Of a DNA stretch of 64,000 nucleotides, positions 19,664 through 35,775 are shown in pieces. Numbering within the stretch: position 1 is the stretch's first letter; the number at the start of each line of letters is the position of its first letter. The notes beneath the pieces were generated by a model, which was given only the letters and a program-made list of their open reading frames with translations, did no database searches and was not told the origin of the DNA. The DNA is taken from sequence record NC_055781.1. The stretch is one strand, 5' to 3'. The DNA is from Escherichia phage p000v. The position numbers and the translations under genes are program-made.

Positions 19664-20626
19664 ATGATTACTATCAATTCCAAAGAACACATTCTAGAAC
19701 AGAAATATCGTCCTTCTTCCATTGACGAATGTATTCTGCCTGCGTATGACCATGAAACATTCAAGTCTTTAGTATCTAAAGGAAAACTTCCTCATATTAT
19801 TTTGCACTCTCCTTCTCCTGGTACAGGTAAAACAACCGTAGCAAAAGCATTATGTAATGATATCAATGCCGAAATGATGTTCGTCAACGGTTCTGATTGT
19901 AAGATTGATTTTGTGCGTGGTCCGTTAACTGCATTCGCTCGTTCAGTCTCAATGGAAGGCAAGCCTAAAGTTATTGTTATTGATGAATTCGACCGTAGTG
20001 GCCTCGCCGAATCACAACGCCATCTTCGTACGTTTATGGAAGAATTCTCTAGTAACTGCTCTATTGTTATTACTGCTAACAACATCGATGGAATTATTGA
20101 ACCATTACGTAGCCGTTGTCGAGTTATCGAATTCGGTCGTCCAACCGAAGAAGATAAAATCTCGATGATGAAGAAAATGATTCATCGTATGGTTGAAATC
20201 TGTAAGAACGAAAATATCGAAATCGCTGATATGAAAGTTGTTGCAGCTCTTGTTAAAAAGAACTTCCCAGACTTTCGTCGTACAATTGGACAATTAGACC
20301 AGTACTCGTCTAAAGGTGTTCTTGATGCGGGTATTCTGTCTATCGTAACTAATGACCGTGGCACAGTCTCTGATGTTATCGAAGCAATGAAGAACAAAGA
20401 TATAAAACAGCTTCGTGCATTAGCTCCAAAATATGCTGCAGATTATTCATGGTTCATCGATAAATTAGTTTCAGAATGTTATGACCAAGTTGCACCTGGT
20501 AAAAGTATTATTTCGCTTTACGAAATTGCAGGCGAAAATAATAAGTTTCATGGATTAGCAAGTAATATTGAATTACATGTTATGTATATGCTTCTTCAAC
20601 TGACCTGCGAACTGACTTGGAAATAA
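19664..20626 (+). CDS. 44: clamp loader large subunit gp44
   Basis: 320 aa; Walker [11 protein letters not shown]; synteny. Confidence 0.92.
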
Positions 20627-20627
20627 T

Positions 20628-21191
20628 ATGAACTTATTCGATGATGACGTCCAGCTTAACGAGCACCAAATTGCATGGAAGTCTAATGACGCTGATGCGA
20701 TTCAAAAATGTGCTGATATGTTTAAAGAAAAACCTGAGAATGAATTCTTTAAAATCATTAATGCTATTAATGAAAAGAAATCTATGTCAATTGCTCAGGT
20801 CGACTACTCAAAATTTATGGTTGAGAACTCATTATCCCAGTTTCCAGAATGTATGCCAGCCGTTTACATGATGAACTTAGTCGGTTCTGAATTAAGTGAT
20901 GAAGCGCACTTCAACTATATGATGGCGGCAATTCCACGTGGTCGTCGATTCTCTAAATGGGCTAAACTAGTCGAAGACACTTCAGAGTTACTAGTTATCA
21001 AACTGTTGATGAAACATTACACAATCAACATGAATGATGCCACCGAGTATAAACGGCTCCTTGAAAAAAATAACAAGCTGCCAATAGTCCTTAAAGAACT
21101 GAAGGCCATGGTCACTGATGAATTTCTCAAAGAAGTTACTAAAAACGTAAAAGAACAAAAACAATTTAAAAAATTAGCATTGGAATGGTAA
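20628..21191 (+). CDS. 62: clamp loader small subunit gp62
   Basis: 187 aa; synteny between 44 and regA. Confidence 0.85.
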
Positions 21192-21193
21192 AA

Positions 21194-21562
21194 ATGATTG
21201 AAATTAAATTGAAGAACCCTGAAGATTTTCTGAAAGTCAAAGAGACTCTGACCCGTATGGGCATCGCTAATAACAAGGATAAAGTTCTTTATCAGTCCTG
21301 TCATATCCTCCAAAAGCAAGGTAAATACTACATCGTCCACTTTAAAGAAATGCTGCGTATGGACGGACGTCAGGTTGATATTGATGGTGAAGACTATCAG
21401 CGACGTGATTCGATTGCTCAGTTGCTTGAAGACTGGGGATTAATTGTTATTGAAGACTCTGCTCGTGAAGATCTATTTAGCCTGACTAATAACTTCCGAG
21501 TTATCTCTTTTAAACAGAAAGATGACTGGACTTTGAAAGCAAAATATACAATTGGTAATTAA
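21194..21562 (+). CDS. regA: translational repressor RegA
   Basis: MIEI.LK.PEDFLKVKETLTRMGIANNKDKVLYQSCHILQK matches recalled T4 RegA; 122 aa. Confidence 0.9.
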   Translation: MIEIKLKNPEDFLKVKETLTRMGIANNKDKVLYQSCHILQKQGKYYIVHFKEMLRMDGRQVDIDGEDYQRRDSIAQLLEDWGLIVIEDSAREDLFSLTNNFRVISFKQKDDWTLKAKYTIGN

Positions 21563-21567
21563 AGCAA

Positions 21568-21586
21568 TGGGACTTCGGTCCCATTT
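21568..21586 (+). promoter_or_regulatory. hairpin UGGGAC-UUCG-GUCCCA (terminator or RNA stability element)
   Basis: 6 bp stem with UUCG loop, only 3 T after. Confidence 0.4.
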
Positions 21587-21615
21587 GGAGTATAATAAGT
21601 TCATCAACAAACAAA

Positions 21616-21631
21616 AGACAATAACTCGTCT
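21616..21631 (+). promoter_or_regulatory. candidate gp43 translational operator hairpin (AGAC-AAUAACUC-GUCU)
   Basis: Short stem with 8-nt loop AAUAACUC 12 nt upstream of gene 43 ATG. Confidence 0.5.
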
Positions 21632-21643
21632 AAAGGAAATTAA

Positions 21644-24355
21644 ATGAAAGAATTTTACTTAACGGTTGAACAGATTGGTGATTCAATTTTTGAACGTTAC
21701 ATCGATTCTAATGGCCGTGAACGTACTCGTGAAGTAGAATATAAACCATCACTGTTTGCTCATTGTCCGGAAAGTCAGGCTACGAAATATTTTGATATCT
21801 ACGGTAAGCCGTGTACTCGTAAACTATTCGCTAACATGCGTGATGCGTCTCAATGGATTAAACGCATGGAAGATATCGGACTTGAAGCACTTGGCATGGA
21901 CGATTTCAAATTAGCGTATTTGTCTGACACTTATAACTATGAAATCAAATACGACCATACAAAAATTCGTGTGGCTAACTTCGACATCGAAGTAACATCT
22001 CCGGATGGGTTCCCTGAGCCGTCACAAGCAAAACATCCTATTGATGCTATCACCCATTATGACTCAATTGACGACAGGTTCTACGTATTTGATCTATTGA
22101 ATTCTCCATATGGTAATGTAGAAGAATGGTCTATTGAAATCGCTGCTAAGCTTCAAGAACAAGGTGGTGATGAAGTTCCATCTGAAATTATCGATAAAAT
22201 CATTTATATGCCGTTCGATAACGAAAAAGAATTGTTGATGGAATATCTCAACTTCTGGCAACAGAAAACTCCTGTCATTTTGACTGGATGGAACGTTGAG
22301 TCATTTGATATTCCATATGTGTATAACAGAATCAAGAATATTTTTGGCGAATCTACTGCGAAACGTTTATCACCACATCGTAAAACTCGTGTTAAAGTTA
22401 TCGAAAACATGTATGGTTCTCGTGAAATCATTACATTGTTCGGTATCTCTGTTCTTGATTACATTGACCTTTACAAAAAATTCTCTTTTACCAATCAACC
22501 GTCGTATTCTCTGGATTACATTTCAGAATTTGAATTGAACGTTGGTAAACTGAAATATGACGGCCCTATTTCTAAGCTTCGTGAAAGCAATCACCAACGA
22601 TATATTTCTTATAACATCATCGACGTGTATCGTGTATTGCAAATTGATGCTAAGCGCCAGTTCATCAACTTGAGTTTGGACATGGGTTATTATGCTAAGA
22701 TACAGATTCAATCTGTGTTCAGCCCAATTAAAACATGGGATGCTATTATTTTTAATAGCCTTAAAGAGCAGAACAAGGTGATTCCACAAGGTCGTTCTCA
22801 CCCGGTTCAACCTTATCCTGGCGCTTTTGTTAAGGAACCTATTCCAAATCGATACAAATATGTAATGAGTTTCGACCTTACATCTCTGTATCCAAGTATT
22901 ATTCGCCAAGTGAATATTAGCCCAGAAACAATAGCAGGAACGTTTAAAGTAGCTCCATTGCATGATTATATTAACGCAATCGCTGAACGTCCTTCAGATG
23001 TGTACAGCTGCTCTCCTAATGGCATGATGTATTATAAAGACCGTGATGGTGTAGTTCCAACTGAAATCACTAAGGTCTTTAATCAACGTAAAGAACATAA
23101 AGGTTACATGCTTGCAGCTCAACGTAATGGTGAAATAATTAAAGAGGCATTGCATAATCCTAATCTTTCTGTTGACGAACCATTAGATGTTGATTATCGT
23201 TTCGACTTCACTGATGAGATTAAAGAAAAGATTAAAAAGTTGTCTGCTAAATCTCTTAATGAAATGTTGTTCAGAGCTCAACGTACTGAAGTTGCAGGTA
23301 TGACTGCACAAATTAACCGTAAATTGCTTATCAACTCACTTTATGGTGCACTTGGAAACGTTTGGTTCCGTTATTACGATTTGCGTAATGCAACTGCAAT
23401 CACAACATTTGGTCAAATGGCTTTACAGTGGATTGAACGTAAAGTTAATGAATATCTGAATGAAGTTTGTGGTACAGAAGGTGAAGCTTTCGTTCTTTAT
23501 GGTGATACAGACTCTATTTACGTATCTGCAGATAAAATTATTGATAAGGTTGGTGAATCTAAATTCCGTGATACCAACCATTGGGTGGACTTTTTAGATA
23601 AGTTTGCACGTGAACGTATGGAACCGGCTATTGATAGAGGTTTCCGTGAAATGTGTGAATACATGAACAATAAACAACACTTAATGTTCATGGACCGAGA
23701 AGCTATCGCTGGTCCTCCGCTCGGTTCTAAAGGTATTGGTGGATTCTGGACTGGTAAGAAACGTTATGCATTAAACGTGTGGGATATGGAAGGTACTCGT
23801 TACGCTGAGCCTAAACTCAAAATCATGGGTCTAGAGACTCAGAAATCTTCGACCCCTAAAGCAGTACAGAAAGCTCTTAAAGAATGTATTCGTCGTATGC
23901 TTCAAGAAGGTGAAGAATCATTACAAGAATATTTTAAAGAGTTTGAAAAAGAATTCCGTCAATTGAATTATATTAGCATCGCGTCGGTATCTTCTGCGAA
24001 TAACATTGCTAAATATGACGTTGGTGGATTCCCTGGTCCTAAATGCCCGTTCCATATTCGTGGAATTCTGACATATAACAGAGCTATCAAAGGTAATATT
24101 GATGCTCCACAAGTTGTAGAAGGCGAAAAGGTATACGTTCTGCCTTTACGTGATGGAAACCCGTTCGGTGATAAATGTATCGCATGGCCTTCTGGTACTG
24201 AAATCACAGATTTAATTAAAGACGACGTACTTCATTGGATGGACTACACTGTTCTCCTTGAGAAGACATTTATTAAACCACTTGAAGGATTCACATCAGC
24301 AGCGAAACTCGATTACGAGAAGAAAGCATCTCTGTTCGATATGTTCGATTTTTGA
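21644..24355 (+). CDS. 43: DNA polymerase gp43 (family B)
   Basis: 903 aa; exo motifs FDIE, polymerase motifs DLTSLYPSII and YGDTDS; N-terminus MKEFYLTVEQIGDSIFERYIDSNGRERTRE matches my recollection of RB69 gp43. Confidence 0.97.
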   Translation: MKEFYLTVEQIGDSIFERYIDSNGRERTREVEYKPSLFAHCPESQATKYFDIYGKPCTRKLFANMRDASQWIKRMEDIGLEALGMDDFKLAYLSDTYNYEIKYDHTKIRVANFDIEVTSPDGFPEPSQAKHPIDAITHYDSIDDRFYVFDLLNSPYGNVEEWSIEIAAKLQEQGGDEVPSEIIDKIIYMPFDNEKELLMEYLNFWQQKTPVILTGWNVESFDIPYVYNRIKNIFGESTAKRLSPHRKTRVKVIENMYGSREIITLFGISVLDYIDLYKKFSFTNQPSYSLDYISEFELNVGKLKYDGPISKLRESNHQRYISYNIIDVYRVLQIDAKRQFINLSLDMGYYAKIQIQSVFSPIKTWDAIIFNSLKEQNKVIPQGRSHPVQPYPGAFVKEPIPNRYKYVMSFDLTSLYPSIIRQVNISPETIAGTFKVAPLHDYINAIAERPSDVYSCSPNGMMYYKDRDGVVPTEITKVFNQRKEHKGYMLAAQRNGEIIKEALHNPNLSVDEPLDVDYRFDFTDEIKEKIKKLSAKSLNEMLFRAQRTEVAGMTAQINRKLLINSLYGALGNVWFRYYDLRNATAITTFGQMALQWIERKVNEYLNEVCGTEGEAFVLYGDTDSIYVSADKIIDKVGESKFRDTNHWVDFLDKFARERMEPAIDRGFREMCEYMNNKQHLMFMDREAIAGPPLGSKGIGGFWTGKKRYALNVWDMEGTRYAEPKLKIMGLETQKSSTPKAVQKALKECIRRMLQEGEESLQEYFKEFEKEFRQLNYISIASVSSANNIAKYDVGGFPGPKCPFHIRGILTYNRAIKGNIDAPQVVEGEKVYVLPLRDGNPFGDKCIAWPSGTEITDLIKDDVLHWMDYTVLLEKTFIKPLEGFTSAAKLDYEKKASLFDMFDF

Positions 24356-35526: not shown

Positions 35527-35775
35527 ATGGAATTATTCGTGGCTAGTTCAGTAGCAGTTTTAATCGCAGGTATTGGTTCAATCATCATTTACATGTTGCC
35601 TTGGGTAATCGCACTTATTCGTGGCACAAAAAGCACAACAGCAATCTTCTTTGTATCTTTACTCTTTAACTGGACGATGATTGGTTGGATTGGAACTTTA
35701 ATTTGGTCTATCGTTGCCGAAAAGAAATCTGCTCAGCAGACTCAACAAGTAATTATTATTCGCGAAAAAGAATAA
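35527..35775 (+). CDS. membrane protein (two TM segments)
   Basis: Hydrophobic throughout. Confidence 0.5.
   Translation: MELFVASSVAVLIAGIGSIIIYMLPWVIALIRGTKSTTAIFFVSLLFNWTMIGWIGTLIWSIVAEKKSAQQTQQVIIIREKE

Follow-up and report, generated by a model that had tools for sequence, protein, structure and literature searches.

The leader of DNA polymerase gene 43 in Escherichia phage p000v very probably carries the RB69-form autogenous translational operator

The region at positions 21616-21643 of the window (the whole 64,000-nucleotide stretch of Escherichia phage p000v, NC_055781.1, that was analysed) is very probably the autogenous translational operator of the gene 43 mRNA in the form described for phage RB69. 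The operator is assigned to the present isolate because it matches the RB69 operator base for base. The element as such is already known, being the described RB69 gene 43 operator, and is not a discovery. Gene 43 is the regulated gene and the repressor gene at once. The parts of the operator and the two adjoining genes are the following:

21616-21619, plus strand: 5' arm AGAC, evident from the sequence, paired with 21628-21631 in all folds and covarying with its partner across relatives
21620-21627, plus strand: 8-nt loop AAUAACUC (DNA AATAACTC), the sequence-specific recognition element with a central UAAC
21628-21631, plus strand: 3' arm GUCU (DNA GTCT), assigned from sequence, folds and covariation
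21632-21643, plus strand: single-stranded 3' segment AAAGGAAAUUAA (DNA AAAGGAAATTAA), which carries the Shine-Dalgarno sequence AGGA
21644-24355, plus strand: gene 43, whose open reading frame encodes a family B DNA polymerase (903 aa; 900/903 identical to RB69 gp43)
21185-21562, plus strand: regA, the 5' neighbour of gene 43, coding for the translational repressor RegA of 125 aa, 124/125 identical to RB69 RegA

Reading along the plus strand, acaaa, AGAC, AATAACTC, GTCT and aaaggaaattaa follow each other up to the ATG at 21644. The hairpin comprises 16 nt, namely the 4-bp stem AGAC/GUCU and the 8-nt loop, and its 3' end is 2 nt from the Shine-Dalgarno sequence AGGA (21634-21637) and 12 nt from the start codon; AGGA itself lies 6 nt 5' of the AUG. 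The hairpin is thus found in the sense-strand 5' leader of a family B polymerase gene and adjoins the ribosome binding site. A preliminary description of this DNA had placed an AGAC/GUCU hairpin 12 nt upstream of the gene 43 start, and its coordinates and wording are exact in the sequence. It had also likened the loop to that of the T4 gp43 operator, and the octamer AAUAACUC is indeed identical in the gene 43 leaders of T4 and T2. When the element was compared with the T4 and RB69 operators, the whole leader proved to be that of RB69 and the loop octamer that of T4. The reading as a gp43 autoregulatory operator is supported by the identity to RB69, the 99.7% identical gp43, the covariation of the stem and the published work on these operators (Uzan and Miller 2010, PMC3014915).

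The window is part of an RB69-like Mosigvirus. With RB69 and other Mosigvirus phages the region shares 98% identity, and the gene order 44-62-regA-43 agrees with the RB69 annotation. Over 141 nt, from the last part of regA through the intergenic region into gene 43, the window shows 100% identity to RB69 (NC_004928), so that the leader equals that of the experimentally characterised RB69 operator. A 58-nt segment (21598-21655) is present at an identity of at least 99% in 143 phage records. The encoded gp43 gives full-length matches to RB69 polymerase entries of the PDB, e.g. 1clq, 1ig9 and 1waj. It differs from RB69 gp43, whose RNA binding is published, at 3 of 903 positions, and all three exchanges are conservative (V446I, S523T and E837D, given as RB69 to window).

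According to the review of Uzan and Miller (2010), gp43 is an autogenous translational repressor, and its operator consists of a hairpin and a sequence overlapping the ribosome binding site. The hairpin-loop is given there as 16 bases in RB69 and 18 in T4, both with UAAC in the loop, and these sizes agree with the window and T4 sequences. The review further states that RB69 gp43 binds the RB69 operator (citing Wang et al. 1997 and Petrov and Karam 2002), that the palm domain of gp43 crosslinks to RB69 operator RNA, and that UAAC were the predominant loop bases selected in the first SELEX. As of 2010 no structure of a gp43-RNA complex had been solved (Uzan and Miller 2010). A hairpin with an 8-nt loop within an operator overlapping with the ribosome binding site is also described by Gold (2015, PMC4661202). 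The polymerases of T4 and RB69 are both RNA-binding autogenous repressors with differing specificities, and their binding of RNA and of DNA is mutually exclusive (Borjac-Natour 2004, PMC535899). One discrepancy was noted: the 'top 10 bases' of the hairpin are said to be identical in T4 and RB69 (Uzan and Miller 2010), whereas our alignment gives nine, i.e. the loop and the 3' closing G. On the 5' side the loop is closed by C in RB69 and by U in T4. As a control on our reading of the leaders we looked at RB49, where CUUUC-GUAAAU-GAAGG was found with UAAA in the loop, as stated in the same review. A full-text literature search for the octamers AAUAACUC and AGCAACCU returned unrelated siRNA/miRNA papers only.

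Folding with ViennaRNA kept the hairpin of 4 bp and 8 nt as the minimum-free-energy structure in contexts of 34, 61, 73 and 121 nt. Its energy is -3.2 kcal/mol, with z = -2.45 in the 34-nt context and z = -0.49 in the 61-nt context, the latter not being significant versus shuffles. The plus strand of the window contains 362 Watson-Crick hairpins with a 4-bp stem and an 8-nt loop, and the octamer AATAACTC occurs three times in the window, where 3.8 copies are expected. Taken alone, the operator hairpin is weak, common and not beyond chance, and therefore the case rests on homology and comparative evidence. The T4 loop octamer enclosed by a stem of at least 4 bp was found once in the 64 kb, at the homologous position 5' of gene 43. 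This combination of T4 octamer, stem and position exceeds chance. Neither of the other two copies of AATAACTC (8910, minus strand; 56872, plus strand) has a stem. The sole other operator-like loop motif in a stem of at least 4 bp within the window is AATTACTT at 35754 on the minus strand. It has a 4-bp stem, lies antisense to an 82-aa plus-strand open reading frame (35527-35775) and was taken as a chance occurrence.

The minimum-free-energy folds also pair UUCAU (21600-21604) with AUGAA (21644-21648), so that the operator is enclosed and the start codon sequestered. The long-range pairing is not significant versus shuffles, and as RNAalifold did not recover it in 15 relatives it was rejected as a conserved feature. 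A scan of positions 20500-22500 against Rfam with E values up to 10 gave chance-level snoRNA and CRISPR matches only, none of which overlapped 21600-21650, and the gp43 operator apparently lacks a model in Rfam 15.

For the comparison across T4-like phages the gene 43 leaders of T4, T2, RB51, VR20, Kpn BM7, JD18, PspYZU05, Merlin and Acj61 were used, to which 64 IMG/VR loci were added. T4, T2 and RB51 have AGCCU-AAUAACUC-GGGCU with a 5-bp stem, situated 18 nt 5' of the AUG and carrying the same loop octamer as the window. In the window and in these phages alike, the stem is short (4-5 bp) and the 8-nt loop is AAUAACUC with the UAAC core. The loop consensus AAU[A/C/U]ACU[C/U/G] is kept in 18 distinct leader types, while the stems change in a compensatory manner: AGAC/GUCU, AGCCU/GGGCU, AGUC/GACU, GUCC/GGAC, AGGC/GUCU, AGACU/GGUCU, AGACC/GGUCU, UUCU/GGAA, GGUCU/GGACC and GACC/GGUC were found among them. 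Covariation was counted on 19 distinct loop-anchored sequences, consisting of the 18 leader types and the variant of Serratia phage PS2. The four inner stem pairs are formed in 76/76 cells with none broken, and three of these pairs change on both sides; since the 4-bp and 5-bp stem classes differ slightly in register relative to the loop, some of the double changes are not independent substitutions. The covariation score was 0.92 versus 0.28 for shuffles, and none of 500 shuffles reached 0.92. With five modelled pairs 91.6% of the cells were paired, and this value dropped to 23-45% once the 3' partners were slid by 1-3 columns. When 15 diverse leaders were aligned with MAFFT without constraints, RNAalifold predicted a single helix, which was the operator stem, with no broken pair and with three of the four pairs compensatory. 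The other conserved blocks in these 15 aligned leaders are AAGGAA (15/15) and the ATG. As the comparison across T4-like phages shows at the level of sequence, the operator hairpin is real.

No AAUNACUN hairpin was found within the 70 nt 5' of gene 43 in L011/L054 (Acj61), L057 (Acj9), L053, L058, L059 and L062, a set that includes the Acinetobacter phages Acj61 and Acj9. The absence of the motif in these phages fits a remark by Uzan and Miller (2010) that gp43 autoregulation is missing from some relatives of T4.

Two further features are located between regA and the operator:

21566-21585, plus strand: 8-bp hairpin with a UUCG tetraloop (AAUGGGAC-UUCG-GUCCCAUU), stable, 4 nt after the regA stop codon and outside the operator
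21587-21596, plus strand: GGAGTATAAT, made up of GGAG (21587-21590) and, at 21591-21596, TATAAT as a perfect -10 hexamer, conserved in most relatives and across genera

GC-rich hairpins of a similar kind are present at this location in T4, VR20, Kpn BM7, JD18 and many IMG/VR loci. In the window the stem of the UUCG hairpin is followed by just three U, and it is not a canonical plus-strand terminator. Possible roles are in RNA stability or processing; alternatively, the hairpin may overlap the upstream region of a promoter. The TATAAT in GGAGTATAAT is a probable gene 43 promoter, from which transcripts would start about 12 nt 5' of the operator hairpin. GGAG followed by UAUAAUA is a partial fit to the consensus of strong RegB sites, GGAGRAYARAA, with 5/7 flanking positions matching. 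Because the UUCG hairpin, GGAG and TATAAT are conserved in relatives, this arrangement suggests that gene 43 may be served both by read-through polycistronic RNA and by a promoter of its own.

We considered three other explanations for the hairpin. It could have arisen by chance or drifted neutrally in an AT-rich leader and have no regulatory role, translation being set by the Shine-Dalgarno sequence alone. The weak stem (-3.2 kcal/mol), the z value of -0.49 in the 61-nt context, the 362 equivalent hairpins on the plus strand and the chance frequency of the octamer are what a fortuitous structure would look like. However, the loop octamer of T4 is identical though the surrounding leader differs, specific binding to the same sequence has been reported (Uzan and Miller 2010), and not a single pair is broken in the 19 distinct leader types. 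Because the stem covaries, a chance hairpin is effectively refuted, and we regard it as extremely improbable. Nor does the hairpin look like a rho-independent terminator, a candidate that was rejected: the stem has only 4 bp with two G-C pairs, it is followed by AAAGGAAA and not by a U tract, and it is absent from the terminator scan. In the promoter scan, promoter-like matches on the minus strand were at chance level.

The two remaining explanations assign the hairpin another function. It could be an element of mRNA metabolism, either a 5'-proximal stabiliser of transcripts from the TATAAT promoter or a determinant for processing of the 45-44-62-regA-43 message by RegB or RNase E. The conserved GGAG and TATAAT 20-29 nt upstream of the hairpin, its distance of about 12 nt from the inferred transcript 5' end and the stimulation of T4 gp43 synthesis by RegB processing (Uzan and Miller 2010) are in line with such a role, yet a 4-bp hairpin is a poor 5' stabiliser, and a fixed loop sequence on a varying stem points to sequence-specific recognition by a protein and not to a generic structure. 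As the explanation of the hairpin this is very unlikely; it is compatible with operator function, however, and possible as a secondary role. The general repressor RegA, finally, is encoded directly upstream, its sites overlap or adjoin AUG codons (Uzan and Miller 2010), and the gene 43 ribosome binding site region is rich in A and U, so the hairpin could be seen as part of a RegA operator. The SELEX consensus of RB69 RegA, AAUAAUAAUAAnA, nevertheless has at least four mismatches at every position across 21610-21675 and five over the ribosome binding site, whereas the starts of genes 44 and 62 fit it better, with three mismatches. RegA sites are moreover unstructured (Uzan and Miller 2010), while the conserved feature here is a covarying hairpin. 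We consider a RegA operator to be highly improbable.

For the gp43 operator the following mechanism is proposed. The 16-nt hairpin and the adjacent single-stranded AAAGGAAAUUAA with the Shine-Dalgarno sequence would together form the binding site for free gp43. Polymerase in excess over that engaged at primer-templates would bind the leader RNA and block access of the 30S subunit, by which its own translation would be repressed. Occlusion of the 30S subunit is proposed because the hairpin ends 2 nt from AGGA and 12 nt from the AUG, and for this compact RB69-type arrangement we infer a steric effect, with the polymerase on the loop and the 3' flank covering the 30S site. Binding to DNA would free the RNA, so that polymerase synthesis would be coupled to the demand of replication. 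That gp43 binds, that it represses and that RNA competes with DNA for it is taken from the literature on the identical RB69 RNA and would apply here by virtue of that identity.

Compared with known systems, the element is closest to the gene 43 operator of RB69: the RNA is identical across the entire regA-43 intergenic region into gene 43, and the repressor is 99.7% identical. The T4 gene 43 operator (Andrake et al. 1988; the SELEX target of Tuerk and Gold 1990) shares the location, the AAUAACUC loop and the 3' closing G, and in addition the AAGGAA Shine-Dalgarno region and the autogenous logic. It differs in its 5-bp stem AGCCU/GGGCU with a U-G closing pair and a size of 18 bases, in contrast to the 4-bp AGAC/GUCU of the window, and in a distance of 18 nt between hairpin and AUG, which includes an AUAAACU spacer, versus 12 nt in the window. 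Reportedly, RB69 gp43 binds both operators, and T4 gp43 discriminates against the RB69 operator. The RB49 gene 43 operator is likewise a leader hairpin beside the ribosome binding site and is bound by its own gp43 (Uzan and Miller 2010), but its stem is CUUUC/GAAGG, its 6-nt loop GUAAAU has a UAAA core, and its 3' arm overlaps the Shine-Dalgarno sequence GAAGGAG. The gene 32 operator of T4 and RB69 follows the same principle, since a replication protein that is off the DNA represses its own mRNA through a 5' leader site near the ribosome binding site. That site consists of a pseudoknot and an unstructured A/U-rich tract to which the protein binds cooperatively, whereas for the gene 43 operator no pseudoknot has been reported (Uzan and Miller 2010).

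The operator loop varies among the phages in which it was found (loop variation was followed in L005, L007, L009, L013-L024, L034-L039, L043-L052, L055, L056, L061 and L063). At position 4 of the loop, Mosigvirus, Tequatrovirus, Jiaodavirus and Moonvirus have A; Dhakavirus, Gaprivervirus and Karamvirus CC31 have C; Marfavirus and Edwardsiella phage PEi20 have U. The loop ends with G in PspYZU05 and with U in L050, and the distance between hairpin and AUG ranges from 9 to 23 nt among the loci. At the operator position of an IMG/VR genome of 175.8 kb (UViG 2974736276; L026:540-600) there is a hairpin AGCC-ACAC-GGCU with a 4-nt loop, followed by AAUGGAAUAAACUAAGGAA; this may represent either a further variant of the operator or its loss. 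In Escherichia phage 04086 (OR842557; L004:705) the coding sequence annotated as '43 gene product' begins at a far-upstream GTG, and its N-terminus VGLKFLLLVG is unrelated to gp43; the gene 43 start is probably mis-annotated there and swallows the leader.

A different loop was seen in Serratia phage PS2 (L040:540-597), where GUCC-AGCAACCU-GGAC is situated 5' of gene 43. The PS2 leader reads GUCCAGCAACCUGGAC, and the PS2 element folds into a stem of 6 bp capped by a CAAC tetraloop, at -8.7 kcal/mol. The PS2 gene 43 is annotated as split (43B/43A). The Serratia phages Muldoon (L041) and SP1 (L078) and Cronobacter phage vB_Cdu_VP8 (L077) have the PS2 sequence with one extra G, and the phages with the AGCAACCU loop are Muldoonvirus. 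The loop AGCAACCU of Muldoonvirus appears to be the 'major variant' of the SELEX carried out by Tuerk and Gold in 1990 on T4 gp43, a variant whose octamer we take to be this sequence. This assignment fits the published properties of the major variant, which has four changes among the eight loop nucleotides (Gold 2015), a CAAC core (Uzan and Miller 2010) and a loop of four instead of eight nucleotides. Uzan and Miller (2010) raised the question whether the major variant occurs in any natural phage, and a limited literature search found no paper reporting such a phage.

For the window the gain is one of annotation: the 28 nt before gene 43 are very probably a functional cis-regulatory RNA, which is omitted in the phage records examined and for which Rfam apparently has no model. 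The operator is of historical weight because the first SELEX was directed at its T4 version, and RB69 gp43 is the structural model for family B polymerases. The comparative table brings together the conserved loop, the covarying stems and the natural variants; it could serve as the seed of an Rfam family and help to select RNA-protein pairs for structural studies. It is possible, if somewhat short of probable, that the gp43 operator is more widespread and more plastic than the published T4, RB69 and RB49 examples indicate, and that the AGCAACCU loop of Muldoonvirus is the alternative solution obtained by SELEX. If this is true, nature and in-vitro selection would have arrived at an identical pair of RNA solutions for a single protein surface.
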